From the NCBI GenBank assembly GCA_964508605.1, contig CAZDUI010000003.1:42454-106453 (forward strand): a stretch of DNA of 64,000 nucleotides, given 5' to 3'. The translations under genes were made by a program, and so were the position numbers. This stretch comes from an uncultured Weeksellaceae bacterium (lineage in GTDB: Bacteria > Bacteroidota > Bacteroidia > Flavobacteriales_D > CAZDUI01). The notes under the pieces were generated by a model. The model was not told where the DNA came from, did not search any database, and saw only the letters and a list, made by a program, of their open reading frames with translations. This document shows, in pieces, positions 2,580-21,653 of the stretch; the stretch's first letter is position 1, and each line of letters starts with the position of its first letter.

Positions 2580-2581
2580 AT

Positions 2582-3337
2582 TTAAAGGATATTTAAAGCT
2601 TCAAAAGTCTCATTCGGTGCTTCTGCATGTACCCAGTGTCCGGCATTGTCAATAGTATGGAATTCTGAGTTGGGGAATTGTTTTCTTAACAAATCAATAT
2701 CGGTATCTGTTATATAATCAGACTTTTGACCTCTAATAAATACAGTTTCGGTGTCAACACGAGTTGAGGGTAAAGCGCTTAAAATTTCGTTCATTTTTAT
2801 TGTAAGAACGGGTATGTTGATTCTCCACCCAAGGGTTTCCCTGGTTGCCCAGTACAAGTTTTTCATTAAAAACTGTAAAACGCCGGCATCATTAACATAT
2901 TTCGATAAATGCAACTCAACCTCATTTCTGCTTTTTAGTTTTGTTAAATCAGCAGTTGTTAATCCTTCAACTATTTTCTGATGGTGGGGCGGATATTCTT
3001 TGACACCAATATCAATCACAACCAACTTAGATAGCAACATTGGGTATTTCATGGCAAAATTCATGGCTACCTTTCCACCCATACTATGTCCCACAAGTAT
3101 TGTTTCGCGCAGATTTTCATCTGCAAATAATTCGGCCAGGTCTTCAGTCATTAATGGATAGCTTATATCTGAAGTATGTGCAGAATGACCATGATTTCTT
3201 AAATCTACCAGATATATAGTATATTTTTCGGCCAAACGTTTTGCCATGGTTTGCCAGTTGTCAGACGAGCCGAAAAGTCCATGAAGTATTACCATGTCAA
3301 TAGGGCCGTTGCCTGTTTTTCTGTAATGGAGTTTCAT
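2582..3337 (-). CDS. alpha/beta-fold hydrolase, paralog of the adjacent gene (YbfF-like esterase)
   Basis: 251 aa; ILHGLFGS and GHSMGG motifs; 3-nt gap to the downstream paralog and a 4-nt overlap with the pdxJ stop. Confidence 0.6.
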
Positions 3338-4047
3338 TTTAATTCTCTTTTATACATCTGAATTGTATTTTCTAGTCCAAAATAAAGACTATCGCTTATT
3401 AGTGCGTGGCCAATGGAAACCTCTTGCAGAGCTTTTACATTGTTTTTAAAATACTTAAGGTTTTTTAAATTTAAGTCGTGTCCTGCGTTTAACCCCAGGT
3501 TCAGTGACGCTGCTAGCTCTGATGATCTAGTGTAAGCTGAAATGGCTTGTTGTGGATTCTTTTCAAAGTTCTCGGCAAAAGGTCCGGTGTAGAGTTCAAT
3601 CCGGTCTGTTCCTGTTTCAACTGCATGAATCATGTTTGTTGGGTCAGTATCAAGAAAAATAGAAACCCGGATACCGGATTTTTTAATTTCACTTATAACT
3701 TCTTTTAACAATAGCGAATGTTTCATGGTGTCCCAGCCTGCATTTGATGTTAATATATTGGGACTGTCAGGCACCAAAGTAACCTGAGCTGGCTTTACCT
3801 GAAGTACCATTTGGATAAAATCATCCGACGGATATCCTTCTATATTGAATTCTGTTGTTAGTACTTCTTTTAAAGCATATACATCATCTCTTCTAATGTG
3901 CCTTTCATCAGGCCGCGGGTGAACAGTGATTCCTTCCGCTCCAAACTTTTCACAATCAATGGCTGTTTTAACCAGGTTGGGTACATTTCCACCTCTTGCA
4001 TTGCGCAGCGTTGCAATTTTATTAATGTTAACACTAAGACGAGTCAT
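3334..4047 (-). CDS. pdxJ: pyridoxine 5'-phosphate synthase
   Basis: 237 aa; N-terminal [14 protein letters not shown] and the overall PdxJ TIM-barrel pattern. Confidence 0.85.
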
Positions 4048-4118
4048 AAATATTATGTTACTTTGGCACTATAAGTGCGGCTTCAAAGTTATTCATTAAA
4101 AAAGAAACGAGTTAAAAT

Positions 4119-4781
4119 ATGATAGCCCGGGAATTAATAACCGATGAAATACCCCCGCTCAGAATCACAGATACGGGGTTAAAAGCACTTACCTGGATGG
4201 ACGAATTTAAAGTAGCCCATTTGCCGGTGGTTAAAAAAACAGAATATATGGGTCTGATTTCAGATACAGATGTTCTGGACATGGAACATGCCGAAGAGCC
4301 CCTCAAAAACCAGAAATTGCAATTAATCAGACCATTTGTATACGAAAATGTGCATATCTATGATGTTATGCGCCTGATTGCAGATTTAAAACTTTCGGTG
4401 GTGCCGGTGTTGGACGTAAATGACAAGTATTTAGGATTAACCCATGTACATCATCTAATTAAGGTAATCACCAAAACAGCCGCACTTGAGAGTCCGGGGG
4501 GAATTATAGTGCTAGAGGTGGCTTATATTGATTACAGCCTTTCTGAAATTGCACAAATTGTTGAAGGGAATGAATCTAAAATTTTAAGTGTTTATGTTAC
4601 AAGTGTTCCAAATTCTACTATGCTTGAAGTAACATTAAAAGTGAACCGGCAGGATTTAAGCAGAATTTTACAGACTTTTCACAGATATGAATACACTGTT
4701 AAAGCATCTTATCACGAAAATATGTTCGGAGATGACATGCGCAACAGGTACGAATCTTTTATGAATTTTCTTAATATTTGA
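4119..4781 (+). CDS. CBS-domain pair protein
   Basis: 220 aa; two CBS-like segments (HLPVV..., VVPVLD...) followed by a C-terminal regulatory domain. Confidence 0.65.
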   Translation: MIARELITDEIPPLRITDTGLKALTWMDEFKVAHLPVVKKTEYMGLISDTDVLDMEHAEEPLKNQKLQLIRPFVYENVHIYDVMRLIADLKLSVVPVLDVNDKYLGLTHVHHLIKVITKTAALESPGGIIVLEVAYIDYSLSEIAQIVEGNESKILSVYVTSVPNSTMLEVTLKVNRQDLSRILQTFHRYEYTVKASYHENMFGDDMRNRYESFMNFLNI

Positions 4782-4801
4782 TTCATCCGATAAAATTTGA
4801 A

Positions 4802-5683
4802 ATGAAGGTAGCAGTTTACGGCAAATCATTTTCTGACAGTTTTTTAGGTGAAATTCAGACACTGTTTACTGAATTGAAAAACATGAAATGGCAGGTTGTT
4901 GTTTATGAGCCATTTATTTCTTATTTAAAGCCTAGAATTGAGCTACCAGAGGATATTAAAGCATTTAGCACTGACGATACTCAGGCATTAAATGGTGTAG
5001 ATTCGTTTTTCTCTATTGGTGGGGACGGAACATTTTTAGATACCATCACTTTTGCCTGTAAATTTGATATACCGGTTTTGGGAATCAATACCGGACGACT
5101 TGGTTTTCTTTCAAATGTTGCTAAAGAGGAGTTATTGCTTGCTTTAAACGCACTTCAGGCCGGAAGATATAGAATAGAAGAACGAACTCTGCTTGAGGTG
5201 AATACAAAAGATCATTTATTTGGTGATTCCAATTTCGCTCTTAATGAACTTACGCTTCATAAAAAAGACACAGCAAGTTTGATTACAATTCATACTTATG
5301 TAAATGATTATTATCTGAATAGTTATTGGGCTGATGGTATTATTGTGGCTACCCCAACGGGTTCTACAGCTTACTCGCTTAGTTGTGGAGGTCCTATTTT
5401 GTCTCCGCAATCCCGAAACTTTATAATCACCCCCATTGCTCCTCATAATCTGAATGTTCGTCCTGTAGTTGTTCCCGATGATGTAAAAATTAAATTGAAA
5501 GTAGAGGGCAGGAGTGAACATTTTTTAGTGTCGCTTGATTCGCGAAGTGAAACAATTATATCGGGTCAAAGTGTTGAAATTCAATCAAAAAAGAGGCAGG
5601 CAAGAATGATTCAACTTGAACATCAAAATTTTTTTAGCACAATTCGTAACAAAATGATGTGGGGAATCGATAAACGGAACTGA
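4802..5683 (+). CDS. nadK: NAD(+) kinase
   Basis: GGDGT motif (SIGGDGTFLD), the NE/DG pattern and ~295 aa length. The ORF track starts at a TTG at 4778; ATG at 4802 (MKVAVYGK) is the more plausible start. Confidence 0.85.
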   Translation: MKVAVYGKSFSDSFLGEIQTLFTELKNMKWQVVVYEPFISYLKPRIELPEDIKAFSTDDTQALNGVDSFFSIGGDGTFLDTITFACKFDIPVLGINTGRLGFLSNVAKEELLLALNALQAGRYRIEERTLLEVNTKDHLFGDSNFALNELTLHKKDTASLITIHTYVNDYYLNSYWADGIIVATPTGSTAYSLSCGGPILSPQSRNFIITPIAPHNLNVRPVVVPDDVKIKLKVEGRSEHFLVSLDSRSETIISGQSVEIQSKKRQARMIQLEHQNFFSTIRNKMMWGIDKRN

Positions 5684-8260: not shown

Positions 8261-10742
8261 GAGTTACATATTGTTCTTAATGGTGTTCTGTATAACACCA
8301 CGGATTGTAGCACAACCCGATAATGCTGTCGATTTTTTAAGTCCTAAAAAATATCGCATTGGTCCTATTATGGTTGAAGGTGCCGATTTTTTTGATCCCA
8401 ATGGTATAAAACTAATTTCAGAATTAAGAGAAGGACAAGAAATTACTGTGCCCGGTGATGACATAACTTCCGCAATTAAAAAATTGTGGGAACAGGATTT
8501 ATTCAGCGACGTAGCAATATATCAAACCAAAATTGACGGAGTAGTTATCCATCTTTTAATTAAGGTGAAAGAACGTCCCAGATTGAGTGGATACAAATTT
8601 ACCGGTGTAAGCAAAGGTGAGAGTGAGAAAATAAAGGAAAAACTTAATCTCTATGCAAATAAAATTGTAACCGAAAACCTGAAAAACAATGGAATTGAAA
8701 TGATTCGGGGTCAATTTATTGAAAAAGGATTTCACAATGTTTCAGTAACTGTCGATGAAAAACAGGATACTACAGGTAACAATCAGGTATTCCTCCGGTT
8801 CAACATCGATAAAGGCAAAAAAGTAAAAATCAGAGAAATAACCATCGAAGGAAACACTACCATTAAGCAGGGTAAACTGTACCGCTCAATGAAGGAAACC
8901 AAAAGAAAACAATGGTACAGGTTCTGGAAAACCAGTAAGTTCATTCGCAGCAATTATAAAACGGACAAAGAGTCTTTAATATCAAAATTCCAAAATGCCG
9001 GGTTGCGCGATGCAAGAATTGTAAAGGATAGTGTATTCAAACTGAATGATAAAGAGTTGGGAATTAAAATTTGGATTGAGGAGGGTGGAGAGTATCATTT
9101 TGGTAACATAACATGGAGTGGTAACACCAAGTATTCATCCGGGAAACTGGACACATTACTGGGTATCAAAAATGGAGATGTATATAATCAGTCTATGCTT
9201 GAATCGCGATTGTACATGGATCCCGCGGGTACTGATATTACTTCGTTATACATGAACGATGGTTATTTGTTTTTTAATATTCAGCCGGTAGAAGTAAGGG
9301 TTTATAATGACACCATTGATTATCAAATACGTATAAATGAGGGCAAACAGGCGTATGTGCGAAAAATAATTGTTAAGGGTAATACTAAAACTTCCGATCA
9401 CGTCATTTACAGGGAAATTCGTACCAAGCCAGGAGATTTATTCAACCGTGAGGATATTATAAGGACACAGCGAGAACTTGCTAATACAGGTTGGTTTGAC
9501 CCGGAGAAGTTTCAGATCAATCCGATACCGGATCCGGCCAGTGGTACCGTAGATATTGAATATACTGTTGAAGAACGTCCCTCAGATCAAATAGAACTTT
9601 CCGGAGGATGGGGTGGCGGCAGAGTAGTGGGTACCTTGGGCTTGTCATTTAATAATTTTTCTGTTAAAAAACTTTTCAAAAAGTCGGCGTGGACTCCTCT
9701 GCCTAGCGGCGATGGCCAAAGATTAAGTATTCGTGCTCAGTCAAATGGCTTATATTGGCAAAGCTATAATTTTAGTTTCACAGAGCCCTGGCTGGGCGGA
9801 AAACAACCAAACGCTTTGAGCATAAGTGGTTATCACTCTATTCAATCTAATGGATTAAAAACAAAGGATCCTGAAAGACAAAGTTTGGCAATTTCAGGAA
9901 TTGCGGTGGGATTAGGCCGTAGGAACAAATGGCCCGATGACTATTTTACAAATTATCAGGAACTGGGATATCAGCACTATCTTGTAAAAAACTATGGCAC
10001 CTTATTTATCATAGATAGCGGTGCATCTAACGCCTATTATTATCAGTTCAGGTTAAGTCGCAATAGTGTGGATCAGCCCATTTATCCCAGGAAAGGCAGC
10101 ACCTTTAATTTTTCTGTAAAATTAACTCCTCCATATAGTTGGTTTAATGGAAAGGATTATAGTTCAATGAGCGATCAGGAACGCTATAAGCTTATTGAGT
10201 ACAACAAATGGAAGTTTACAGCCAATTATTATACACCGCTTACAAAGGATAATAAATTGGTATTAAATGCGCGCACCGGTTTTGGATTCCTGCACTATTA
10301 CACCAAAGAAGTTGGAGCACCACCTTTTGAACGGTTTGTGTTGGGAGGAAGTGGTCTTACGGGCTTTAATCTTTTTGGCCATGAAATCATTGCACTTCGC
10401 GGTTATGATGATAACAGCGTTTCGCCAAGAACAGGTGATATGCTCATTGCAAAATATACTTTGGAACTCAGATATCCATTGTCTTTGAATCCTTCAGCAA
10501 CCATTTGGCTTCAGGCATTTGCCGAAGCAGGTAATACCTGGTCGAGCTTTAAGTCGTTTAATCCGTTTTCTGTGAAACGATCGGCGGGTTTAGGGGTAAG
10601 AATTTATTTGCCCATGTTCGGATTGATGGGACTTGATTATGGTTGGGGATTCGACCGCCTGGATTCTGATGCCAACGGTATTCATGTTCCAGGTCAGGGT
10701 CAGTTTCACTTTACAATTGGTATGAATCTTGGCGAACTCTAA
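8250..10742 (+). CDS. bamA: outer membrane protein assembly factor BamA
   Basis: 830 aa; signal peptide, POTRA repeats, and a C-terminal Omp85 barrel that ends in an aromatic residue. Confidence 0.9.
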   Translation: MLNKSYILFLMVFCITPRIVAQPDNAVDFLSPKKYRIGPIMVEGADFFDPNGIKLISELREGQEITVPGDDITSAIKKLWEQDLFSDVAIYQTKIDGVVIHLLIKVKERPRLSGYKFTGVSKGESEKIKEKLNLYANKIVTENLKNNGIEMIRGQFIEKGFHNVSVTVDEKQDTTGNNQVFLRFNIDKGKKVKIREITIEGNTTIKQGKLYRSMKETKRKQWYRFWKTSKFIRSNYKTDKESLISKFQNAGLRDARIVKDSVFKLNDKELGIKIWIEEGGEYHFGNITWSGNTKYSSGKLDTLLGIKNGDVYNQSMLESRLYMDPAGTDITSLYMNDGYLFFNIQPVEVRVYNDTIDYQIRINEGKQAYVRKIIVKGNTKTSDHVIYREIRTKPGDLFNREDIIRTQRELANTGWFDPEKFQINPIPDPASGTVDIEYTVEERPSDQIELSGGWGGGRVVGTLGLSFNNFSVKKLFKKSAWTPLPSGDGQRLSIRAQSNGLYWQSYNFSFTEPWLGGKQPNALSISGYHSIQSNGLKTKDPERQSLAISGIAVGLGRRNKWPDDYFTNYQELGYQHYLVKNYGTLFIIDSGASNAYYYQFRLSRNSVDQPIYPRKGSTFNFSVKLTPPYSWFNGKDYSSMSDQERYKLIEYNKWKFTANYYTPLTKDNKLVLNARTGFGFLHYYTKEVGAPPFERFVLGGSGLTGFNLFGHEIIALRGYDDNSVSPRTGDMLIAKYTLELRYPLSLNPSATIWLQAFAEAGNTWSSFKSFNPFSVKRSAGLGVRIYLPMFGLMGLDYGWGFDRLDSDANGIHVPGQGQFHFTIGMNLGEL

Positions 10743-10767
10743 ATCATTGTGTAATTTCGCAAACTGA

Positions 10768-11277
10768 ATGATGAAACATGTTCTTCTGTCAATATTAATT
10801 TTAGCAGGTATTTCTGCTCAAAGTCAATCTGTTAAATTTGCCTATATCAATACAAAGGATATTCTTGAAAAAGTACCTGCTTTTGCAGAAGCACAAAGGT
10901 CATTAGATGAGCTTTCAGAAAAGTGGCAAAAAGAAATAGCTCAAAAGTACATTGAAATTGAAGCCAAAAGAAATGCATATCTGGAAGAAAAAATATTCCT
11001 GACGGTTGATATTCAAAAGAAAAGAGAAGAGGAAATTGCGGGTATGGAAAACACGGCACGTGAATTGCAAAAAAGCCGCTTTGGAGTGAACGGCGAATTG
11101 TATCAGAAACGACAGGAACTTATTAAACCAATACAGGACAAAATGTACAAGGCAATTAAATCTGTAGCCGAAGATAAATATACTTTTGTGTTTGATATAG
11201 CCGGACAAAGTAATATCATGTATGCCGACCCAAAACTTGATATTAGCAGTAAAGTTGTAAAGGAAATGGGTTACTAA
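10768..11277 (+). CDS. OmpH/Skp family periplasmic chaperone
   Basis: 169 aa; signal peptide and coiled-coil Skp-like sequence; lies in the conserved bamA-ompH-ompH position. Confidence 0.75.
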   Translation: MMKHVLLSILILAGISAQSQSVKFAYINTKDILEKVPAFAEAQRSLDELSEKWQKEIAQKYIEIEAKRNAYLEEKIFLTVDIQKKREEEIAGMENTARELQKSRFGVNGELYQKRQELIKPIQDKMYKAIKSVAEDKYTFVFDIAGQSNIMYADPKLDISSKVVKEMGY

Positions 11278-11287
11278 AATTAATAAA

Positions 11288-11791
11288 ATGAAAAAGCTGA
11301 TTTTTACCGTATTATTATCTATGGGTGCGCTTATTGGTGCAAACGCGCAATCTCTGAAATTAGGACATGTTAATAGCCAAAATGTTATTAACGACATGCC
11401 AGAGTATAAGGAAATGACTGAAGTCCTGAAGGCTAAAAACGATGAACTGATGAAAGAACTTCAGGAACTTGAAAAAGTGTATATGACTAAAATGAAGGAG
11501 TATGAAGATCCATCTACAAGCGAAACGCGAAAAAAAGTCCTTCAGGGTGATATTATAGACCTGGAAAGTCGTGTTCAGCAAAGACAAGAGTCGGGTCAGG
11601 CTCAACTGGAACAGTTAAGTGTGAGTTTAAGAACTCCTCTTCTCGAGAAAATAGATAAAGCCATTAAAGAAACAGCATCCGAGAATAAAATGAATTATGT
11701 TTTTGACACCGCAGCACTGTTGTATTTTGAAGGCGGTGAGGATTTAACGAATAAGGTAAGAGCAAAATTGGGATTACCCGTAGCTCCTTAA
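11288..11791 (+). CDS. OmpH/Skp family periplasmic chaperone (second copy)
   Basis: 167 aa; paralog of the preceding gene. Confidence 0.75.
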   Translation: MKKLIFTVLLSMGALIGANAQSLKLGHVNSQNVINDMPEYKEMTEVLKAKNDELMKELQELEKVYMTKMKEYEDPSTSETRKKVLQGDIIDLESRVQQRQESGQAQLEQLSVSLRTPLLEKIDKAIKETASENKMNYVFDTAALLYFEGGEDLTNKVRAKLGLPVAP

Positions 11792-11804
11792 TTCCGGGTT
11801 AGCG

Positions 11805-12620
11805 TTGTTTGCAAAGCGTAATCGTCCGGTAGGAATTTTTGATTCCGGTATTGGTGGCTTAACTGTTGCATCTGCTATTAGGAAGGCGCTTCCTAACGAA
11901 CATTTGGTATATTTTGGTGATACTGCGCACCTTCCGTATGGTGATAAATCTCCGGAGTCCATTAGAAGTTATGCTCTTGAAATCTCAAAATTTCTGTATC
12001 AAAAAGGATGTAAGGTAATACTTATTGCATGCAATACAGCAAGTGCACATGCTTATCATGTAGTAAATCAAGAATTTGGAAACCGCGTGCCGGTTATCAA
12101 TGTTATTGAACCTGTTGCGCAATATGTAGCACATAACTACACCGGCCAAAGAATAGGTGTAATCGGTACCAAGGGTACCATTCACTCAAGAATTTATCCA
12201 AAAACTATTCAGAAAATGAATAGGAATGTTGATGTGACTTCCCTTGCTACCCCATTGCTGGCATCAATGATTGAAGAGGGATTTTATAATAACAATATTT
12301 CTCAGACAATCATTAACTCTTATTTATCAAGGCCTAGTATAAAGGATATTCAGGCGTTGGTTTTGGGATGCACTCATTATCCTTTGATAAAACATGAAGT
12401 AAAGAAATTCTATGGTAAGAGTGTCGAAATTATTGATTCAGCGGAAGTGGTAGCGCGCCATTTGGGGTTTGTATTGTCTTCAAATAATTTGTTACGCGAT
12501 TCCGATTCTCGGCTTGAAAATCAGTTTTTTGTTTCAGATTATACAGAGGCATTTGAGAAGAGCACACGGATATTTTTCAGGGAAACTATTCACTTGGATG
12601 AAATTCGTCTTTGGGATTGA
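11805..12620 (+). CDS. murI: glutamate racemase
   Basis: VGIFDSGIGGLTV, ACNTAS and GCTHYP motifs. Confidence 0.85.
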   Translation: MFAKRNRPVGIFDSGIGGLTVASAIRKALPNEHLVYFGDTAHLPYGDKSPESIRSYALEISKFLYQKGCKVILIACNTASAHAYHVVNQEFGNRVPVINVIEPVAQYVAHNYTGQRIGVIGTKGTIHSRIYPKTIQKMNRNVDVTSLATPLLASMIEEGFYNNNISQTIINSYLSRPSIKDIQALVLGCTHYPLIKHEVKKFYGKSVEIIDSAEVVARHLGFVLSSNNLLRDSDSRLENQFFVSDYTEAFEKSTRIFFRETIHLDEIRLWD

Positions 12621-12990
12621 TTTTTCGTAGAGGAAATGGTTCGGTTCTTATTTCAATGTCCATCTCTTCAAACGGCCGTAAAGAGTTACATATATTATGC
12701 TTGACATAGGCTGTCAGGTTTTCAAAACGACCCATCAGGTTTGCAACCATGCGGTCGCTTTTCTCTGAAAGATAACCTATTTTGAAGTCCCGAAAATATA
12801 CTGCCACTGCGTGAGGATTCAGCGGATTATCCGTTTCGTGAACTAGTTGTACAATATCACGGGATTGCATTTTATGGAAAACGTATATGTAATCGTAATC
12901 GGCCAACCGATTGACGGTAGTTAATATGCCAAATCCGGGGTCTCCGTTTCTGGTTCCGGCTAATTGATTGGATATTTTGTAGTTTCTCAT
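12586..12990 (-). CDS. HIRAN-domain protein (standalone, 134 aa)
   Basis: AGTRNGDPGFG...VQLVHETDNPLNPHAVAVYFRDFKIGYLSEKSDRMVANLM matches the HIRAN pattern (G-rich start, NP.D..A..V...KIGY...A..LA.L.). Confidence 0.5.
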   Translation of the reverse strand: MRNYKISNQLAGTRNGDPGFGILTTVNRLADYDYIYVFHKMQSRDIVQLVHETDNPLNPHAVAVYFRDFKIGYLSEKSDRMVANLMGRFENLTAYVKHNICNSLRPFEEMDIEIRTEPFPLRKINPKDEFHPSE

Positions 12991-12993
12991 GGC

Positions 12994-13347
12994 TTATGCA
13001 CAAAGGGGATACTGGAAGGATTGCAAGTTTTCAGGAAGATCTGATTCTGAAATTGTAAGAACTTCCGAAATTACATTACTAAGTGTAATTAATGAGAAAC
13101 TGTCGTTAGTGGCCAGACACTTTTCAATTTCATTGTAAAGCTTATCTTTATCATTTTCAGTTAGTTTGGTAAAAATGGCACTCGTCAGGTGACTATCAAT
13201 ATTCAGTAGCAAAGGAAAATAGGTTCCATTCGCCTTATACATTACCTTTGCCTGCATTTCCGGAACACCCTGTTCCATTATTATGTGGTTAATTTCAATT
13301 ATTCCGTTATTTCCGGAAGTTGTGGATGCATTAGACAGTGTTTTCAT
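12994..13347 (-). CDS. hypothetical acidic protein (117 aa), translationally coupled to the HIRAN gene
   Basis: Its TAA stop lies 3 nt before the ATG of the HIRAN gene; no recognisable motif. Confidence 0.4.
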   Translation of the reverse strand: MKTLSNASTTSGNNGIIEINHIIMEQGVPEMQAKVMYKANGTYFPLLLNIDSHLTSAIFTKLTENDKDKLYNEIEKCLATNDSFSLITLSNVISEVLTISESDLPENLQSFQYPLCA

Positions 13348-13569
13348 CTTTTCTTAGTTTGATATCACAAAGGTCGCACACCACTCCGTAAACTATTTAC
13401 GGTTTGCAAATTATTTTTTGAAATAATTGCTAAATCATTGAAATTCAATTGAAATAATTTATTACTATGAAACGATATTTTGCATTTTTTACGTTATGGT
13501 CTATTCCAGTAAGATGTGTAATCCGAATTTTTGATTTTGGTATTTTTTTTGTAAATTGCTGATTAAACC

Positions 13570-14388
13570 ATGCACATGAGAACGCTGATAGTATTATTTG
13601 TTTTTGGCGTAGTAGTAAAAACAACCCACGCATTTCCGGTTGGAATTAGCAGTTACACTGAAGAGGTAGTCTCCTATAGAACCATTGTACACCAGTGCTT
13701 TGCTCCTGGTGAGCGTCTAAAATACAAACTGCATTTTGGCTTGATTGACGCAGGAGTTGCCGAATTAAAGGTGAATAAAACCGGAAAGACTGTTAAAGGC
13801 AGAGAGCTTTTGCATATTGTGTGTGAAGGAAAATCGGTGGGTGCTTTTGATTTGTTTTATAAAGTACGCGATGTGTATGAAACGTATATTGACAAAAGTG
13901 GAGTGTTTCCCTGGGTTTTTGTAAGAAGAGTTGATGAGGGCGGTTTTAAGTTTTCGCAGGATTATACCTTCTATCAGAATAAAAAAGTGGTAGATAATGG
14001 CAAAGGCAAGCAGTTTAATGTACCCGAGAATATTCAGGATATGATTTCAGCTTTTTATTATGGACGTACGCTGGACCTTAGTAATGTAAAACTGAATCAG
14101 GTTTTTAATATTCAAGTGTTTGTAGATGATGAAATTCACAATTTAGGGGTAAAGTATAAAGGGGAAGAGGTTGTTAAACTTAGGAAAGGAACCTATAGAT
14201 GTTATAAATTTCAGCCCATTGTAATTAAGGGCAGAATATTTAAAAAGGAAGATGATTTGACTGTCTATATTACTAAGGATGCCAATAAAATTCCTGTTTT
14301 GGTGAAGGCAGAAGTGATGTTTGGTTCGGTTAAAATGGAATTAACAGAATATGAGGGATTAAGTAATCCTTTGGCAAAGGTTAAATAA
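13570..14388 (+). CDS. DUF3108-like secreted protein
   Basis: 272 aa; signal peptide; ...GERLKYKLHFGLIDAGVAELKV... pattern typical of the Bacteroidota DUF3108 family. Confidence 0.5.
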   Translation: MHMRTLIVLFVFGVVVKTTHAFPVGISSYTEEVVSYRTIVHQCFAPGERLKYKLHFGLIDAGVAELKVNKTGKTVKGRELLHIVCEGKSVGAFDLFYKVRDVYETYIDKSGVFPWVFVRRVDEGGFKFSQDYTFYQNKKVVDNGKGKQFNVPENIQDMISAFYYGRTLDLSNVKLNQVFNIQVFVDDEIHNLGVKYKGEEVVKLRKGTYRCYKFQPIVIKGRIFKKEDDLTVYITKDANKIPVLVKAEVMFGSVKMELTEYEGLSNPLAKVK

Positions 14389-14463
14389 ACCGGGTTCAAA
14401 TTTTATCAAAAAAAATAGTCCTTGTTTCATGCTGTAAGCGGGAAATATGAGTAATTTCCGCAC

Positions 14464-15465
14464 ATGGAAATCAATGATAGTATTCAAGAGAAGATTATTA
14501 AGCTTCAGGAGAAATATGCGACCATAGGTCAGGACCTGGATTCGTATTTAGACGGTTTACTGGTATCAAACCCTTTGTATTACTGGGATTATATAAAAGT
14601 AGACGCGTTGCTTAGTTTGCAGCAGCAACGAACCGATTTCCCTGATGAACAAATTTTTATTGTTTATCACCAAATTACGGAGTTGTATTTTCATCTGACG
14701 TTGCATGAAATGCGGCAGTTATCTTATAATGGCCGCAATGTAACCGATATGGGTCAAGATTTGGGCTGGAATCAAAAGCTTACAGGCACATTGTTAACTG
14801 AAAGATTGAAACGCATCAACAGGTATTTTGAGGCCCTTACTTTGTCTTTTGATATCATGCGTACCGGAATGGACAAAGATCAGTTTCTTCGGTTCAGAAT
14901 GGCACTGTTACCAGCGAGTGGTTTTCAGGCTGCCAATTATCGCAGAATTGAAATTTGCGCTACCGATTTGGGCAATTTAGTGCATCATACCAAGCGTGAA
15001 CAGATGAAAAATGCCTCAGTTCTTGAGCAATTGAATAACATATATTGGAGACAAGGTGCTATTATTGAAGAAACCGGAGAAAAAACATTGACTCTGAAAC
15101 ATTTTGAGGATAAATATATGGATGATTTCAGAAATCTTGCGCTTGAAATGGAACATAGAAATCTGTGGAAGAAATTTCAATCGCTGACGGTAGAGGAAAA
15201 GCAAAACCCGGAATTGATAGATGCCTTGAAGGCTTTTGATGTTCACGTGAATATTAACTGGCCATTGGTTCATTATAAAACGGCAGCCAGGTATATGGCT
15301 CGCGATAATTCAGATGTTGCCGCTACAGGAGGTACCAACTGGCAAAAATATCTGCCTCCGCGTTTTCAAAAAAGAATATTTTTTCCTGAAATGTGGTCGG
15401 AATCCGAAAGGGAAAATTGGGGAAAAGAGTGGGTGAGTAGTGTAATTACTAAAGTTTGGGAATAG
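14464..15465 (+). CDS. kynA: tryptophan 2,3-dioxygenase
   Basis: YWDYIKVDALLSLQ...DEQIFIVYHQITELYF...FLRFRMALLPASGFQAANYRRIE matches the conserved bacterial TDO blocks. Confidence 0.75.
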   Translation: MEINDSIQEKIIKLQEKYATIGQDLDSYLDGLLVSNPLYYWDYIKVDALLSLQQQRTDFPDEQIFIVYHQITELYFHLTLHEMRQLSYNGRNVTDMGQDLGWNQKLTGTLLTERLKRINRYFEALTLSFDIMRTGMDKDQFLRFRMALLPASGFQAANYRRIEICATDLGNLVHHTKREQMKNASVLEQLNNIYWRQGAIIEETGEKTLTLKHFEDKYMDDFRNLALEMEHRNLWKKFQSLTVEEKQNPELIDALKAFDVHVNINWPLVHYKTAARYMARDNSDVAATGGTNWQKYLPPRFQKRIFFPEMWSESERENWGKEWVSSVITKVWE

Positions 15466-15499
15466 TCCTGACAGTATAATTCCAAAGGTCAATCCCTTT

Positions 15500-15940
15500 T
15501 TACTTTAGTCCTACGAATACACAAAGACAACTTTCGTACTCTATTTCATTTCCTTTGTTCGCTTTTTCAGGGACTACAATTTCGACGATAAGTTGTTGAG
15601 TTGCAGCCACCTTGAAATCAAGATAGTCTTTGCCGTCCGGTTTTGATTCGTAAATAATATTATTATCCTGGTCCTTCACTTTAAAAACCGGCTTTACCTT
15701 GTCTTGCAAACAAACGAGTAAACGATAAGGAGTATTGGCGTAAAATGTCATCAATAACTCTGCTTTGTCTCCGGGCCAAACGGTGGCAATATTCATTTTA
15801 CCGTCGTGAGTATAACTTTCTAATTGAGGAAGACATTTTTTCTTGGCAAATGTTTTACATTGTCCAAAAGCACTATTTGTTGCTATAATGAATGCAACCG
15901 TGAAGAGTGTAACCAGAAATTTTTTCATTTTATGGTTCAA
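15500..15940 (-). CDS. hypothetical secreted protein (146 aa, 4 Cys)
   Basis: Signal peptide MKKFLVTLFTVAFIIATNSAFGQ; no motif recognised. Confidence 0.4.
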   Translation of the reverse strand: MNHKMKKFLVTLFTVAFIIATNSAFGQCKTFAKKKCLPQLESYTHDGKMNIATVWPGDKAELLMTFYANTPYRLLVCLQDKVKPVFKVKDQDNNIIYESKPDGKDYLDFKVAATQQLIVEIVVPEKANKGNEIEYESCLCVFVGLK

Positions 15941-16826
15941 TATATTTATTTCGTATTTCAGTAACCAGGGATTTTAGCTCAGTTAGATGCTCGGGGGTAA
16001 TTTTTATTTGTTTTTGAGCACCAATTACTAATACATCTCCTTCAGTTTTGGTTTCACTTTCGGCCTTTTCTTCAGCCATAGTTTCGTATATTTTCCAAAT
16101 AGATTGAATGTCTTTCAGGTATTCAGTTAGATCCTGGTCACCGGAGTAGCTTTCAAAAAGCTCTTTTAAACTTTTAACGGAATACTTTTGGTCGGCAATT
16201 AACTGTGCAATCCTTTCATCAGGATTTGCAGGGTCGACAACCTGGGTGGAAATATACAAGGCCTCAACCACACCACCTGAGAGCATCATAGCTGCAACAT
16301 CAATTTGTTCATTTTCTTTAAGATATTGTTCCAGGTTTGCAAACGATTCTGAAATAATCATTCGCATACTATCCTGGTTGTCCTGATTTTTTTCCATTCT
16401 TGAAATCAAATCAACACCTACAGCCTCTGATATTCCCAGTTCTTCATGAAGGTGCACGCAGGCCGCCATAAATCGTAACGACTCACTACGGTTCATTATA
16501 TTGGCGTACGTAAGATCTGTGCCATAAATGCCAAGATTTATTGACATTTTTTTCATATCAACATACGAACTCACCTTTTCAGGATCGTGGGGTAGTTTTT
16601 CAACATAATTAATACCTGCATCTCTCATGATAAATGACAGAGTCATAGGAGAAGGTATATTGCTGAACAGAGCCTCAATAAGGCCCTTTGCGTCTCCTGA
16701 AAGGGTATCCTCTACCACTTCTGGTTCTGTTTCGTTCTGACCAACATTGTCTCCGCTGCCTGATTCCTGACAGGAACAAAAGAGCGCGGTACCCAATACC
16801 GCAGGAATGATAAATTTCATTTTCAT
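15930..16826 (-). CDS. hypothetical lipoprotein (298 aa)
   Basis: Signal peptide with lipobox LFCSC; lies directly downstream of polA on the same strand. Confidence 0.45.
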   Translation of the reverse strand: MKMKFIIPAVLGTALFCSCQESGSGDNVGQNETEPEVVEDTLSGDAKGLIEALFSNIPSPMTLSFIMRDAGINYVEKLPHDPEKVSSYVDMKKMSINLGIYGTDLTYANIMNRSESLRFMAACVHLHEELGISEAVGVDLISRMEKNQDNQDSMRMIISESFANLEQYLKENEQIDVAAMMLSGGVVEALYISTQVVDPANPDERIAQLIADQKYSVKSLKELFESYSGDQDLTEYLKDIQSIWKIYETMAEEKAESETKTEGDVLVIGAQKQIKITPEHLTELKSLVTEIRNKYIEP

Positions 16827-16856
16827 AATACAAAGTAAATCATTTCAATTGAAAAC

Positions 16857-19628
16857 TCAATGTGCATCCAGCCAATTTTCTGCCGCAGCCATTTCAACGG
16901 TAAGTGGAACTGAGAGCTTAACAGCGTGCTCCATTTTATCGCGCACTATATCCATCACAACTTCTTTCTCGGGTTTGTAAAGATCAAAAAGCAGTTCGTC
17001 ATGAACTTGTAATATCATTTTGGTTTTCAGGTTTTTTTCTTTCATTTCCCGGTGAATATTTACCATAGCAATTTTTATAATGTCAGCCGCGGAACCTTGA
17101 ATAGGGGCATTAATTGCATTTCGTTCTGCCTGATTGCGTACTACAGGATTTGAAGAGTTAATGTCGCTTAAATACCTTCTTCTTTTCAGGATGGTTTCGA
17201 CATAACCTGTTTCCTTTGCTTTTTTAGCAGCATCCGTTATATAGGTTTTAACACCGCTGAACATTTCAAAATAGTTGTCAATTATTTCTTTTGCTTCTGT
17301 TCGGCTGATACCCAAATTCTGGCTTAGTCCAAAAGCAGATTGACCGTAGATTATTCCAAAATTTACAGCCTTGGCTTTGCTTCGCATTTCCTTTGTAACT
17401 TCCTTCAATGGCACTCCAAAAACCTTGGCTGCTGTAGCTGCGTGTATATCTTCTCCCCTGGCAAATGCTCCTATCATTCCCATATCGTTACTCAGTGCAG
17501 CAATAATGCGTAATTCTATTTGTGAATAGTCGGCGGATAATATAAGATGGTCATTGTTGCGCGGCACGAAGCTTTTACGTATTTCTCTTCCTTTCTCTGT
17601 TTTTATAGGAATATTTTGCAAGTTGGGATGGTTTGAACTTAGTCTTCCTGTGGCCGCAACGGTTTGTAAAAATGTGGTATGGATTCTACCGGTGGCTTTA
17701 TTAACCATTTCCGGTAATGTGTCTACATATGTAGACTTCAGTTTACGCAAACCACGATACTCTAATAAGTCATTAACTATGGGGTGTTTGTCTCTTAATG
17801 TGATAAGTATATCTTCCCCGGTAGCGTACTGGCCGGTTTTAGTTTTTTTAGCACCCGAGTCAATCTTAAGATGTTCAAACAGTATTTCGCCCAATTGTTT
17901 TGGAGAATCCGGGTTAAAAGGTACCCCGGCATGTTGCATGATCGAATCGTGCAATAAAATCAGCTCTTGCTCAAGTACTTTGCTGTACTGTTTTAGAGCG
18001 GCACAATCAATATTTATTCCTTCGCACTCCATTGCACTTAAAACATCTATTAGAGGCATTTCAACCTCCATTGCCAGCTGATGCATTTCTTTTGAAGATA
18101 GAACCGGAGCAAAAACCTCCTTTAATTGTAGAGTTATGTCTGCATCCTCACAAGCGTATTCCATTATTCTATCTATGGCTACATCTCGCATGTTCAATTG
18201 ATTTTTGCCTTTTTTTCCAATTAACTGCTCTATGGATACAGGCCTGTAACCCAAATATGTTTCCGACAAATAGTCCATTCCGTGTTTTTTTTCCGGATTC
18301 AGCAGGTAATGGGCAATCATGGTGTCGAATAGTGTTCCTTTCACCTCTAGATGGTATCGCCTTAGTACATTTAAATCGTATTTCAGATTTTGTCCGGATT
18401 TTCTGATGTGTTCCGATTCAAAAAAAGGCTTCAATTGATTCAACTTTATTTGGGCGTCCTTTTCGTCGTTTATGGGAAGGTAGTATGCTTCAGATGCTAC
18501 CCAACTGAAAGATATACCAACCAACTGGGCACTTATTCTATCCAAACCGGTTGTTTCTGTGTCGAAACAAACGTCATTCTGTTGCAATAACAAAGGTAGA
18601 AAAGCTTCAATTTGATCTATCGTCTGATATTTGTGAGATGTATTCTCAATGGTTTTAAAATCTGATATTTGTATAGATTCAACCATCGGATCGGCCCCAA
18701 ATAGGGTCATTTGAGAACCTTGCACCATTTTTACCTGTGACGAATCTCCTAAAACCCGTTGAAGCATCGAACGGAATTCGAGTTCGCTGAACAATTCAGT
18801 AATTTTTTCACGGTTGGGCGGGTCAACTTTTAACGCTGTCGCATTAAACGATATTGGAGCATCAATGATGATTGTAGCCAGAACTTTAGAGAGTCGGCCC
18901 AAATCGGCATTTTCCCTAATCTTTTCACCCAGCTTACCTTTTATTTGGTCTGAATGATCTAGAACACTGTCAAAGGAGCCATATTCAGCCAGTAATTTTT
19001 GAGCTGTTTTTTCGCCAACACCGGGTATGCCCGGAATATTATCGGCACTGTCGCCCATTAGTCCCAGAAGGTCAATAATTAATTCGGGTTTTGATATTTG
19101 AAATTTCTCGCAAAAAGCCGCGGAATCGAGTATTTGGGCGGGGTTACCGTAGGCTGGTGGTTTGTATACAAAAATATTGTGATTCACTAATTGTCCCATG
19201 TCCTTATCTGAAGTAACTATATATACGTTGAAATGATGTTTTGCAGCCTGCGTACTAATTGTACCAATAACGTCGTCTGCTTCATATCCGTCAAGCATTA
19301 AAACGGGTATGTTCATGGCTTCAATAAACCTTTTAATATAAGGAACACTGCGAATTATATCTTCCGGTGTTTCGGGGCGATGCGCTTTGTAGGCTGCGTA
19401 TTGTTCGTTACGAATGGTACTTCCGCCGGGAGGGTCAAAAACCACACCCAAATGCGTAGGATTTTCCTTTTGCAAAATATCCAGAAGTGTATTGGCAAAA
19501 CCAAAAATTGCTGAGGTGTTTTGACCTTTAGAATTGATCCTGGGGTTCTTAACAAACGCAAAGTACGACCGGAATATTAAAGCATACGCATCCAGTAGAA
19601 AAAGTCTGTTTTCCTTGTTTTCGGTCAT
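16857..19628 (-). CDS. polA: DNA polymerase I
   Basis: 5'-3' exonuclease, 3'-5' exonuclease and polymerase domains with motifs RRxxKxxNFGxxYG and QVHDEL; the ORF track starts at 19703 but ATG at 19628 (MTENKEN) is more likely. Confidence 0.95.
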   Translation of the reverse strand: MTENKENRLFLLDAYALIFRSYFAFVKNPRINSKGQNTSAIFGFANTLLDILQKENPTHLGVVFDPPGGSTIRNEQYAAYKAHRPETPEDIIRSVPYIKRFIEAMNIPVLMLDGYEADDVIGTISTQAAKHHFNVYIVTSDKDMGQLVNHNIFVYKPPAYGNPAQILDSAAFCEKFQISKPELIIDLLGLMGDSADNIPGIPGVGEKTAQKLLAEYGSFDSVLDHSDQIKGKLGEKIRENADLGRLSKVLATIIIDAPISFNATALKVDPPNREKITELFSELEFRSMLQRVLGDSSQVKMVQGSQMTLFGADPMVESIQISDFKTIENTSHKYQTIDQIEAFLPLLLQQNDVCFDTETTGLDRISAQLVGISFSWVASEAYYLPINDEKDAQIKLNQLKPFFESEHIRKSGQNLKYDLNVLRRYHLEVKGTLFDTMIAHYLLNPEKKHGMDYLSETYLGYRPVSIEQLIGKKGKNQLNMRDVAIDRIMEYACEDADITLQLKEVFAPVLSSKEMHQLAMEVEMPLIDVLSAMECEGINIDCAALKQYSKVLEQELILLHDSIMQHAGVPFNPDSPKQLGEILFEHLKIDSGAKKTKTGQYATGEDILITLRDKHPIVNDLLEYRGLRKLKSTYVDTLPEMVNKATGRIHTTFLQTVAATGRLSSNHPNLQNIPIKTEKGREIRKSFVPRNNDHLILSADYSQIELRIIAALSNDMGMIGAFARGEDIHAATAAKVFGVPLKEVTKEMRSKAKAVNFGIIYGQSAFGLSQNLGISRTEAKEIIDNYFEMFSGVKTYITDAAKKAKETGYVETILKRRRYLSDINSSNPVVRNQAERNAINAPIQGSAADIIKIAMVNIHREMKEKNLKTKMILQVHDELLFDLYKPEKEVVMDIVRDKMEHAVKLSVPLTVEMAAAENWLDAH

Positions 19629-19658
19629 GAGCTTTGTGTTTGTGTTTAGGGGTGAAGA

Positions 19659-19689
19659 TAAAAAAAGCCCCCGAAACCGGAGGCTTTTT
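19659..19689 (-). terminator. rho-independent (bidirectional) terminator hairpin between the YwqK-like gene and polA
   Basis: Plus strand reads AAAAAAA-GCCCCCG-AAAC-CGGAGGC-TTTTT: a 7-bp stem with one mismatch, flanked by A-runs and T-runs. Confidence 0.5.
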
Positions 19690-19706
19690 ATAATAAGGAA
19701 CATTTT

Positions 19707-20585
19707 TTAGAATTCTAATACACCGTCTCCGAAGTATTTGCCGTCTTTGTATATTTCAATTTTGTATAGGAGTCCGTTTTTATCGTATTTGTACCACTTA
19801 CCGTTCCACAGTTTTCCGTTTTTAAACTCGCCGTCCATTTCTAAATCCTGATTGGGGTTATAAGTTTTATGATAACCGTCTTTAGGCAATTTACCTCCGT
19901 CTGCAGGATTTGTATTACCTTGGGTAACGGGCGCTACTTTAATAGTTTTCTCTTCTATTTTAACTGCAGGATTTACCATTTTCTTTTCAACCCGGTTAGC
20001 AACCTGTCCGCCGGAATAATCAAGTTCCTCTTTAACATCTCCGTTCTCATAGTAACGGGTTGCTTTGCCTTCTTCAACGCCGTTTTTGGAATTGTAAACA
20101 AATTCAGGTTTACCGTTAGAAAAGTAATATTCTACTTTTCCGTCTGTTTTACCTGATTCGTTAAAATTCTTCTTTTGGGCTACCTGCCCGTTATCGTGGT
20201 ATCTTTCAAAGGAACCTACATACTTATTTCCTTTCCACATTCCTTTTTCTTCAATTTGTCCGTTTTCGTAATATTTGATATAAGTACCGTTGGGACGGTC
20301 CATTTTGTGCTCAATTTCGCTTTTCTTCTTTTTACCCGGGTAATAACTAATCCAGATTCCGGTTTTACGATTGTCAAGGTAGTCGCCTTCTTCAACAGGC
20401 TCTTCAGGAGCATAGCCGGGCAAATTTTTGTGCTTGCCCAAAAACACCCAGTGCCCCTGTTTTTTTCCTTGTTCATCGGTTTTATTTACCTCTTTACCCT
20501 GGTAGGTAAAGGACTGGGAGTCAGCACGAGTAACTGACACACCGCACAGGAACAGAAGTCCTAATATTATTGCTCTCAAACTCAT
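19707..20585 (-). CDS. MORN-repeat / YwqK-family repeat secreted protein
   Basis: Many YxNG/YENGQ repeats (the MORN-like 'toxin-antitoxin system YwqK family antitoxin' fold); the signal peptide starts at the internal MSLRAIILGLLFL. Confidence 0.6.
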   Translation of the reverse strand: MSLRAIILGLLFLCGVSVTRADSQSFTYQGKEVNKTDEQGKKQGHWVFLGKHKNLPGYAPEEPVEEGDYLDNRKTGIWISYYPGKKKKSEIEHKMDRPNGTYIKYYENGQIEEKGMWKGNKYVGSFERYHDNGQVAQKKNFNESGKTDGKVEYYFSNGKPEFVYNSKNGVEEGKATRYYENGDVKEELDYSGGQVANRVEKKMVNPAVKIEEKTIKVAPVTQGNTNPADGGKLPKDGYHKTYNPNQDLEMDGEFKNGKLWNGKWYKYDKNGLLYKIEIYKDGKYFGDGVLEF

Positions 20586-20714
20586 AGTAGTTGCCCTTAG
20601 ACGCCATAAATATATAAAGATATTTGAATATCCCGCAAATTCTTTAGATAAAACATGAAAAAAATTGCGTGAGCGTTCGAAATGGAGGTATGAATGATAC
20701 AGCATAGCAGTTAT

Positions 20715-21653
20715 TTATATAGATATACTGTTTATCATAATATCAACCATTGTGCCTAAGTTGGTTTCCGGTTTCCAGTTCCAGTGTTTTCTTGCTTCTG
20801 AATCATCGATAGAATCTGGCCAGCTGTCTGCAATTGCTTGTCTGAAGTCGGGTGCATAACTTATTTCGAAACCGGGCTTTCTTTTAGAAATTTCGGCTGC
20901 CAGTTCGGCCGGTGTAAAACTAAACCCGGCCAAATTATATGACGATCTTATTTGAATCTGTTGGGACGGAGCCTCCATAATGCCAATGGTTGCACGTATA
21001 GCATCGTCCATAAACATCATGGGTAGTCGGGATTCTGCATGAAGAAAACAGGTATAACTGTTTTTTTTGGCGGCTTCATAAAATATATCCACAGCATAAT
21101 CGGTGGTGCCGCCGCCGGGAAGCGATTTATAACTGATAAGCCCCGGGTATCTTACCCCTCTAACGTCTACCTTATATTTGTTAAAGTAATATTCACACCA
21201 TCTTTCGCCGGCCAGTTTACTAATACCATAAACTGTGGTTGGCTCCATAATGGTATATTGAGGCGTGTTTGCGCGGGGCGTAGTGGGACCGAATACTGCA
21301 ATGCTGCTGGGCCAGAATATTTTTTTCAGATGCCCCTCTTTAGCTAAGTCCAGTGCATGAAATAAGCCATCCATATTTAATTGCCAGCCAAATTTCGGGT
21401 TCTTCTCGGCTGTTGCTGACAAGAGAGCAGCCAAATGATACAGATGTGTAATGTTGTGTTTTTTAATTAGATTATAAAAAGCACCCGCATCTAATATATC
21501 CAGGGTTTCAAAAACACACGAAAGTTCTTTTTCGGGTGTTCGCACATCTGCTGCAATTACGTTAGATGCCCCATGAACCGATACCAGCTTCTCTACCAGG
21601 TCTGTGCCTATTTGCCCGAGCGCCCCGGCTACTAAAATTTTGTCGGATACCAT
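20715..21653 (-). CDS. NAD-dependent epimerase/dehydratase family protein, L-threonine 3-dehydrogenase-like (SDR type)
   Basis: GALGQIG Rossmann motif, YGISK active-site motif, GGGTTDYAVDIF and PDFRQAIADSWP blocks typical of short-chain TDH. Confidence 0.6.
   Translation of the reverse strand: MVSDKILVAGALGQIGTDLVEKLVSVHGASNVIAADVRTPEKELSCVFETLDILDAGAFYNLIKKHNITHLYHLAALLSATAEKNPKFGWQLNMDGLFHALDLAKEGHLKKIFWPSSIAVFGPTTPRANTPQYTIMEPTTVYGISKLAGERWCEYYFNKYKVDVRGVRYPGLISYKSLPGGGTTDYAVDIFYEAAKKNSYTCFLHAESRLPMMFMDDAIRATIGIMEAPSQQIQIRSSYNLAGFSFTPAELAAEISKRKPGFEISYAPDFRQAIADSWPDSIDDSEARKHWNWKPETNLGTMVDIMINSISI

Follow-up and report, generated by a model that had tools for sequence, protein, structure and literature searches.

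A divergent stand-alone HIRAN gene and its acidic orphan partner downstream of murI in an uncultured Weeksellaceae bacterium

Introduction

What are two small, closely packed genes, one of them encoding almost nothing but a HIRAN domain, doing immediately downstream of murI in an uncultured Weeksellaceae bacterium? We address this question in a stretch of 64,000 nucleotides (nt) from GenBank assembly GCA_964508605.1 (contig CAZDUI010000003.1, positions 42,454 to 106,453), which we refer to as the window. The first gene of the pair, orf117, encodes an acidic protein of 117 amino acids (aa), and the second encodes a 134-aa HIRAN protein. An initial sequence-only reading proposed that the two could form a small DNA-targeting toxin/immunity or defense-type module or, alternatively, a repair accessory factor. 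We conclude that the pair is a divergent member of the HIRAN family with an orphan partner and that it does not demonstrably form a new system.

In eukaryotes, HIRAN domains function in fork remodeling (PMC5773155), and prokaryotic HIRAN domains have been described as uncharacterized (PMC11090510). That bacteria encode stand-alone HIRAN proteins has been clear from the first definition of the family (Iyer et al. 2006, cited in PMC8262856). The HipN architecture, which joins a HipS-like domain to a HIRAN domain, has also been described (Gerdes et al. 2021, PMC8262856), and HipL/HipN-type genes have been noted as predicted defense genes (PMC11706625).

Results

Both genes are intact and under purifying selection

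Three alleles of the pair were found, all from public metagenome assemblies: the window type (also carried by contigs L008 and L092), the type of L001 to L004, and the type of L005 to L007. Both open reading frames (ORFs) are intact in all three, with orf117 always encoding 117 aa and the HIRAN gene encoding 134 or 137 aa. The alleles are 74-79% identical in the orf117 protein and 90-93% identical in the HIRAN protein, and their differences are skewed to the third codon position in both ORFs. The excess of synonymous differences is highly significant in a binomial test for the HIRAN gene (p <= 3.5e-10) and for orf117 (p <= 9e-4). Ratios of nonsynonymous to synonymous substitution rates (dN/dS), calculated by the Nei-Gojobori method (NG86), are 0.06-0.10 for the HIRAN gene and 0.19-0.33 for orf117, compared to 0.01-0.07 for most flanking genes. 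The dN of orf117 is 0.11-0.13 versus 0.003-0.019 for its neighbors, which corresponds to roughly 10-fold faster protein evolution.

The intact frames, the synonymous excess, and the low dN/dS together show that orf117 and the HIRAN ORF are functional coding genes under purifying selection, and the coding signal that the sequence-only reading had left in question for the small ORF is clear. One might still suspect spurious or decaying ORFs without a function, as orf117 has no homologs beyond the lineage and the structure predictions for both proteins are of low confidence. This suspicion is hardly credible against frames that survive in every allele, a highly significant synonymous excess, dN/dS values well below 1, and codon usage typical of the genome.

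The pair is confined to one narrow lineage and one chromosomal slot

Among about 15 billion proteins, the pair is represented by its three alleles only, and the HIRAN protein forms a single 90% cluster of three sequences. The two genes always occur together in one chromosomal slot: nine contigs carry the pair (L001 to L008 and L092), and wherever the contig is long enough, both genes lie between murI and a gene for a DUF3108 protein. The co-occurrence of the 117-aa family with this HIRAN protein, which the sequence-only reading had marked as worth checking, is constant among these contigs.

To place the slot in a wider taxonomic frame, MurI was used to scan one genome per GTDB species (185,579 species representatives), which returned 80 loci. 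The best MurI match among them is only 64% identical, and the lineage therefore lacks a close representative among the GTDB species genomes. Many of the metagenome-assembled genomes matched by MurI bear implausible species labels, such as Chitinophaga pinensis and Chryseobacterium gleum. Neither orf117 nor the HIRAN gene was found near murI at any of the 80 loci, whether by tblastn or by hidden Markov model (HMM) searches of six-frame ORFs. Exact-protein look-ups of MurI and the DUF3108 protein (four in total), which sought strains without the cassette, returned no record. The pair is confined to one narrow Bacteroidota lineage and absent beside murI from the nearest 80 species. Universal conservation beside murI, which would have argued for a housekeeping role, is not what the relatives show.

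Conservation at this locus has a sharp edge. The upstream block of NAD kinase, two DUF6089 genes, uppS, bamA, two ompH genes, and murI is widely conserved, its genes being present in 45-80 of the 80 loci, and no window gene downstream of murI was found within 6 kb in these related genomes. Synteny stops exactly at murI, as the sequence-only reading had proposed for the uppS-bamA-ompH-murI block, and the downstream neighbors in the relatives are assorted housekeeping genes. The pair is thus not universal, and its site is no obvious hotspot for accessory genes. Its flanks comprise NAD kinase, DUF6089, uppS, bamA, ompH, murI, DUF3108, tryptophan dioxygenase, and polA genes. The guanine-plus-cytosine (GC) content is flat over the locus, and both third-position GC (GC3) and synonymous codon choice are within one standard deviation of the window genes. 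We found no signature of recent foreign origin at the locus in GC content, codon usage, tRNA genes, integrase genes, or repeats. A 17-nt direct repeat with 88% identity (12479/13449) was considered as an insertion mark and rejected, as it fails to match both recombination breakpoints.

The second gene encodes a HIRAN domain with an altered pocket

The 134-aa protein is almost wholly one divergent HIRAN domain, with an 18-aa C-terminal tail. Residues 33-88 match positions 12-68 of the 96-position Pfam HIRAN profile (PF08797) with an E-value of 7.8e-8. The score of 32.5 bits exceeds the gathering threshold of 24.7 bits, as do those of the other two alleles (31.1-31.2 bits). The protein carries the motif E-x-D-N-P-x-x-P-H-A-[IV]-A-V … K-[IL]-G-Y. 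Judged by these matches, the HIRAN assignment is sound, and the domain call of the sequence-only reading, for which a missing profile match would have been fatal, holds above the Pfam threshold. The protein also matches a phage HIRAN family in PHROG (phrog_27141, E = 3e-6). A profile built from the three alleles alone has no match in the PDB at E <= 10. An eight-sequence profile that adds five other bacterial HIRANs matches 3K2Y (E = 2e-8) and the HIRAN domain of HLTF (E = 4e-4), a signal that comes largely from the added sequences. An AlphaFold2 model from a two-sequence alignment reaches a predicted local distance difference test (pLDDT) score of 35.6, too low for a useful comparison with the six-stranded, OB-like beta-barrel flanked by helices that characterizes the family. 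Scans for wider HIRAN relatives with their genomic context yielded none in the viral collection and only two loci in the metagenome collection.

In HLTF, D94 of the HIRAN domain recognizes the primer 3'-OH, and the aromatic residues Y72 and Y93 pinch the terminal bases (PMC5773155). We mapped these residues onto the window protein by column transfer through the eight-sequence alignment. The equivalent of Asp94 is Asn58 in all three alleles, whereas it is Asp in all five of the other bacterial HIRANs aligned. Tyr93 corresponds to Leu57 and Arg71 to Asp33, and Tyr72 is kept as Tyr34, so the window protein lacks the full set of 3'-OH-contacting Asp and pinching aromatics (D94, Y72, and Y93). By this alignment, the end-binding pocket is remodeled. 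Since the contact residues are changed, binding of a DNA 3'-OH is not simply to be assumed. Relative to HLTF/Rad5, the window protein belongs to the same family and keeps Tyr34 and the N-P / A-x-x-V / G-[HY]-L core, but it is not fused to an SNF2 motor or a RING domain and carries Asn58, Leu57, and Asp33 in place of Asp94, Tyr93, and Arg71.

Known stand-alone HIRANs, such as the solved example 3K2Y (Lactobacillus plantarum lp_0118, 109 aa) and the phage family phrog_27141, share the single-domain form of about 110-150 aa and the motif. The window protein differs from them in being very divergent, in having Asn at the 3'-OH contact, in its 18-aa C-terminal tail, and in its obligatory orphan partner. 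No function can be transferred from these proteins because prokaryotic HIRANs are described as uncharacterized.

The role of eukaryotic HIRANs in fork remodeling would also suit a chromosomal accessory unrelated to conflict, in which the HIRAN protein processes stalled forks, gaps, or DNA ends with orf117 as its adaptor, the two forming a young operon of the housekeeping type. Strong purifying selection on the HIRAN gene, host-like GC, GC3, and codon usage, the housekeeping neighbors, the lack of mobile-element or defense hallmarks, and the presence of the pair in every sampled member of the lineage agree with such a role. The pair is nonetheless missing beside murI in all 80 nearest species, its orf117 partner is an orphan with relaxed constraint, the key Asp that contacts the 3'-OH is replaced, and no repair enzyme is fused or adjacent. 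We rank this explanation second, as possible but rather unlikely.

The first gene encodes an acidic orphan

The orf117 protein has an isoelectric point (pI) of 4.58 and a net charge of -7. It matches no family at a meaningful E-value in Pfam, NCBIfam, PADLOC, or PHROG, in agreement with its earlier description as an acidic product of no recognized family. A word-indexed search of 5.8 billion clusters matched its three alleles only. When 1.84 billion representatives were searched exhaustively with an HMM, the matches were orf117 itself and a few long repeat proteins, which are spurious sums of weak matches. Phage and plasmid collections contain no match. AlphaFold2 predicts three strands followed by helices from a three-sequence alignment (pLDDT 48.5), and a Foldseek search of this model against the PDB found nothing at E <= 0.001, with template modeling (TM) scores of at most 0.41. 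A relationship to Cas2 was considered because of PADLOC matches to Cas2b (E = 0.015-0.03) and because a cas2 gene lies upstream of a metagenomic HIRAN gene described below; hhalign assigns it a probability of 0.1%, and we rejected it.

The C-terminal sequence QSFQY[P/L]LCA is kept in all three alleles. An invariant C-terminus could be the short core of a precursor-like peptide of the NHLP type, a ribosomally synthesized and post-translationally modified peptide (RiPP), and residues 57-109 of orf117 weakly match PDB entry 9cjx_A, annotated as "NHLP leader peptide family natural product" (E = 0.045). That E-value falls short of significance, and orf117 matches none of the NHLP/Nif11 models in NCBIfam. 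The aligned part is moreover at the wrong end of orf117, leaving eight residues as the core, and no radical SAM, YcaO, LanM, or peptidase-transporter gene is among the neighbors. A RiPP precursor is therefore very improbable.

The two genes share a tight, conserved junction and a reading frame

On the minus strand, the orf117 stop codon TAA (12996-12994) is followed by the spacer GCC (12993-12991) and the HIRAN start codon ATG (12990-12988). This junction, TGTGCATAAGCCATGAGA, was read directly in the raw sequence, bearing out the tight coupling that the sequence-only reading had described, and it is the same in both other alleles (L002 8352-8360 and L005 8352-8360). Its arrangement suggests termination-reinitiation coupling. 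The two ORFs are also in the same reading frame, and a read-through or ancestral fusion product of 253 aa would be as long as the HipS-HIRAN proteins of the HipN type. The 3' end of the HIRAN gene overlaps that of murI by 35 nt according to the ORF coordinates, just as had been estimated. In relatives, the HIRAN protein is 137 aa long and the overlap is 44 nt, which reflects substitutions within the murI overlap; the window gene stops 9 nt sooner than both other alleles (12586-12594).

Among recognizable relatives, the HIRAN domains found in HipL/HipN proteins are closest to the window HIRAN. PADLOC reports a weak match to PDC-M03B, the HipN-type HipS-HIRAN protein (E = 3e-4), and tblastn matches the window HIRAN to the C-terminal end of a protein of 519 aa encoded by a P2-like phage. 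When the window alleles were aligned to this phage HipL-type HIRAN, hhalign returned a probability of 94% with 44% identity over 39 columns, which make up the core motif. The HipN/HipL (PDC-M03) proteins resemble the window pair in having the nearest HIRAN sequences and in placing a module of about 120 aa ahead of the HIRAN domain, which in the window takes the form of neighboring in-frame ORFs. The pair differs in lacking both a HipA-like kinase and a detectable HipS-like domain, in being encoded by separate genes, and in its housekeeping setting. No HipA-like Ser/Thr kinase is adjacent or fused to the pair, whose neighbors are MurI and DUF3108, and no HipS-like (Couple_hipA) domain was detected N-terminal to HIRAN in either orf117 or the conceptual fusion.

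These resemblances raise the possibility that the pair is a kinase-less HipN-type gene of about 250 aa (HipS-like plus HIRAN) that was cut by an in-frame stop codon, leaving an orphaned antitoxin or regulatory module. The two ORFs lie in one frame with only TAA-GCC between them in all alleles, the nearest HIRAN relatives are those of HipL/HipN, and residues 157-217 of the 253-aa fusion align collinearly to positions 146-207 of the 245-position PDC-M03B profile. On the other side, hhalign gives a probability of 0.2% for orf117 against HipS-like domains, and even the fusion has no Couple_hipA match. Against a dedicated HipS-like profile, the score is -0.1 to -0.8 bits, a level that 7-14% of shuffled sequences also attain, and several collinear motif resemblances seen by eye failed the shuffle test. 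Genuine HipN proteins themselves reach only E = 0.0015-0.008, so a very divergent HipS-like domain could escape detection. No HipA-like kinase gene is nearby, and both halves are under purifying selection rather than decaying as a pseudogene would. We consider a split HipN gene improbable.

The 519-aa phage protein served as a positive control and matches HipA_C, Couple_hipA, HIRAN, and both PDC-M03A and PDC-M03B. It is annotated as hypothetical in Escherichia phage 899 (PV533660.1 23624-25183; locus L089 2678-4237) and is also found in L090. It represents a HipL-type fusion of a HipA_C kinase, a HipS-like (Couple_hipA) domain, and HIRAN, which unites PDC-M03A and PDC-M03B in one chain. Its gene is located between those for a replication endonuclease and a 3'-5' exoribonuclease on one side and the portal gene on the other.

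A shared upstream region contains a conserved palindrome

The divergent 222-bp region between orf117 and the DUF3108 gene presumably holds the promoter of the pair. Within it, 39-55 nt upstream of the ATG of orf117, is a perfect palindrome, CCGTAAA-cta-TTTACGG (CCGTAAACTATTTACGG), with 7-bp arms and a 3-nt loop. The 64-kb window has this palindrome a single time, against a chance expectation of 0.39 with up to two mismatches. All three haplotypes have it in the same form even though L002 is highly diverged in the sequence just upstream. The palindrome may serve as an operator or form a leader hairpin. An Rfam search of the intergenic region found no family, the canonical Bacteroidota -7 motif TAnnTTTG is absent from the minus strand of the 222-bp region, and scans for promoter and terminator consensus sequences returned chance-level matches only. 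No terminator-like site was found between the HIRAN gene and murI, and the two transcripts should therefore overlap in antisense. The coordinates of these features are listed in Table 1.

Table 1. Features of the orf117-HIRAN locus in window coordinates
Feature	Coordinates	Strand or orientation	Size	Description
murI	11805-12620	+		From the ORF list; MurI confirmed by Pfam
HIRAN gene (stand-alone)	12586-12990	-	134 aa	Gene 2 of the pair
orf117	12994-13347	-	117 aa	Gene 1 of the pair; acidic orphan
DUF3108 gene	13570-14388	+		DUF3108 confirmed by Pfam
Junction TAA-GCC-ATG	12988-12996	-		orf117 stop, 3-nt spacer, HIRAN start
HIRAN/murI 3' overlap	12586-12620	Convergent	35 nt	
Intergenic region orf117/DUF3108	13348-13569	Divergent	222 bp	Presumed promoter region of the pair
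Palindrome CCGTAAA-cta-TTTACGG	13386-13402			In the 222-bp intergenic region
Allelic patch	12494-13267			10-20% divergence of the window from relatives that are near-identical outside the patch

Alleles of the cassette appear to have been exchanged between near-identical backgrounds

When the window is mapped against L002, only two mismatches fall in 11800-12493, whereas they are dense over 12494-13267 and absent from 13268-13406. Between 13366 and about 19200, the window is virtually identical to L005. The patch of dense mismatches differs by 10-20% from both L002 and L005 and takes in the final 127 nt of murI, all of the HIRAN gene, and the greater part of orf117. Contig L008 matches L002 at 99.5-100% identity for more than 7 kb but bears the cassette allele of the window. 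The mismatch pattern among L002, L005, and L008 indicates that cassette alleles have been exchanged by homologous recombination between near-identical backgrounds. Such an exchange is compatible with diversifying or balancing selection.

The wider region is itself patchy. Positions 9000-21000 of the window form a mosaic of at least two strain backgrounds, L002-like to the left of 12493 and to the right of about 19200 and L005-like from 13366 to 19200. This mosaic could reflect real recombination or a partly chimeric metagenome assembly. The dS also varies greatly between adjacent genes, from 0.07 for ompH1 to 0.86 for ompH2.

Features compatible with conflict are not diagnostic

The layout of the pair, two small adjacent codirectional genes with a 3-nt spacer kept in all three alleles, is that of a type II toxin-antitoxin (TA) operon. 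Further likenesses to type II TA systems are the acidic and variable upstream gene, the upstream palindrome, and the allelic variation at the strain level. In contrast to these systems, neither window protein matches a toxin or antitoxin family, and no DNA-binding antitoxin domain was found in Pfam, NCBIfam, PADLOC, or PHROG. The fast evolution of orf117, the allele swapping, the upstream palindrome, and the antitoxin-before-toxin-like order are all compatible with conflict, and none of them is diagnostic. A TA, defense, or repair-accessory role of the pair is unproven.

Nor does the locus correspond to a known defense system or have defense or mobile-element neighbors, and PADLOC gives a domain-level match only. 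A two-gene antiphage system, in which the HIRAN protein would sense the ends of phage DNA with orf117 as effector, or the two roles would be exchanged, would accommodate the weak match to the candidate PDC-M03B, the raised dN of orf117, the allele swapping, and the occurrence of HIRAN domains in a P2-like phage accessory locus and beside cas1-cas2 in metagenomic locus L091. The PADLOC match is accounted for by the common HIRAN domain alone, however, and no effector-type domain was detected by Pfam, PADLOC, or NCBIfam. The pair is not in a defense island but among housekeeping neighbors, and its family occurs in a single lineage, with nothing that points to horizontal spread. We give this possibility a small chance.

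The L091 locus (2049-5223; ERZ1026898 NODE-413) encodes a 150-aa stand-alone HIRAN protein (3869-4321; Pfam E = 1.4e-13). Its gene is directly downstream of an array resembling clustered regularly interspaced short palindromic repeats (five repeats, 2049-2383), cas1 (2634-3464), and cas2 (3475-3792), and it shares a 4-nt overlap with the gene of a 301-aa coiled-coil protein whose DnaJ match is below threshold. The placement of a 3'-end-binding domain next to spacer-integration genes may merit separate study.

Discussion

Our favored reading is that the pair consists of a lineage-specific nucleic-acid-end binder, the HIRAN protein, and a cotranslated acidic modulator, orf117. We hold it tentatively, somewhat short of likely, and most of its credit belongs to its descriptive part. 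The two genes would form a bicistronic operon transcribed from the 222-bp region in common with the divergent DUF3108 gene. Termination-reinitiation would yield the two proteins in a fixed proportion, and they may act as a complex. The HIRAN barrel would bind a single-stranded nucleic-acid end with a specificity shifted from that of the eukaryotic 3'-OH pocket, and the faster-evolving, acidic orf117 would mask or tune this binding. Such a logic of binder and modulator would resemble that of a type II TA pair or of the HipS-HIRAN module of HipN, without an identifiable enzymatic effector. Candidate roles for the pair are a conflict or addiction module and lineage-specific handling of DNA ends.

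Several observations weigh against this reading. The orf117 protein has no recognizable DNA-binding, antitoxin, or enzymatic domain in Pfam, NCBIfam, the PDB, or PHROG, and the HIRAN protein, at pI 6.5, is close to neutral, whereas a typical DNA binder is basic. The AlphaFold models of both proteins are of low confidence (pLDDT 48.5 for orf117 and 35.6 for HIRAN), and a shared frame of two adjacent ORFs has a 1-in-3 chance expectation. The locus is situated among housekeeping genes with host-like GC content and codon usage, and no integrase gene, tRNA gene, or convincing flanking repeats were found there. Patches of high dS also occur elsewhere, as in ompH2 between L002 and L005 (dS 0.86). Because recombination patches are common elsewhere in these genomes, allele swapping is not specific evidence of conflict.

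A more pointed version of the conflict role is that of a minimal module in which the pocket-remodeled HIRAN protein, with its change from Asp to Asn, is an effector that caps nucleic-acid ends and the acidic orphan is its cotranslated inhibitor, the pair possibly descending from a HipN-like gene that was split after loss of the kinase. We think this unlikely. If it were true, the movement of alleles that are 10-20% divergent between near-identical strains would reflect diversifying selection.

The significance of the pair extends beyond this choice of roles. Prokaryotic HIRANs are widespread, in contexts that include HipA-type kinase toxin systems, phage accessory loci, and cas1-cas2, and their function has not been experimentally established (PMC11090510). 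The minimal two-gene version described here offers a tractable setting for asking what bacterial HIRANs bind and how they are regulated. Its value is mainly that of a clean experimental candidate, which combines a bare HIRAN domain, an apparently altered 3'-end pocket, and an obligatory small partner.

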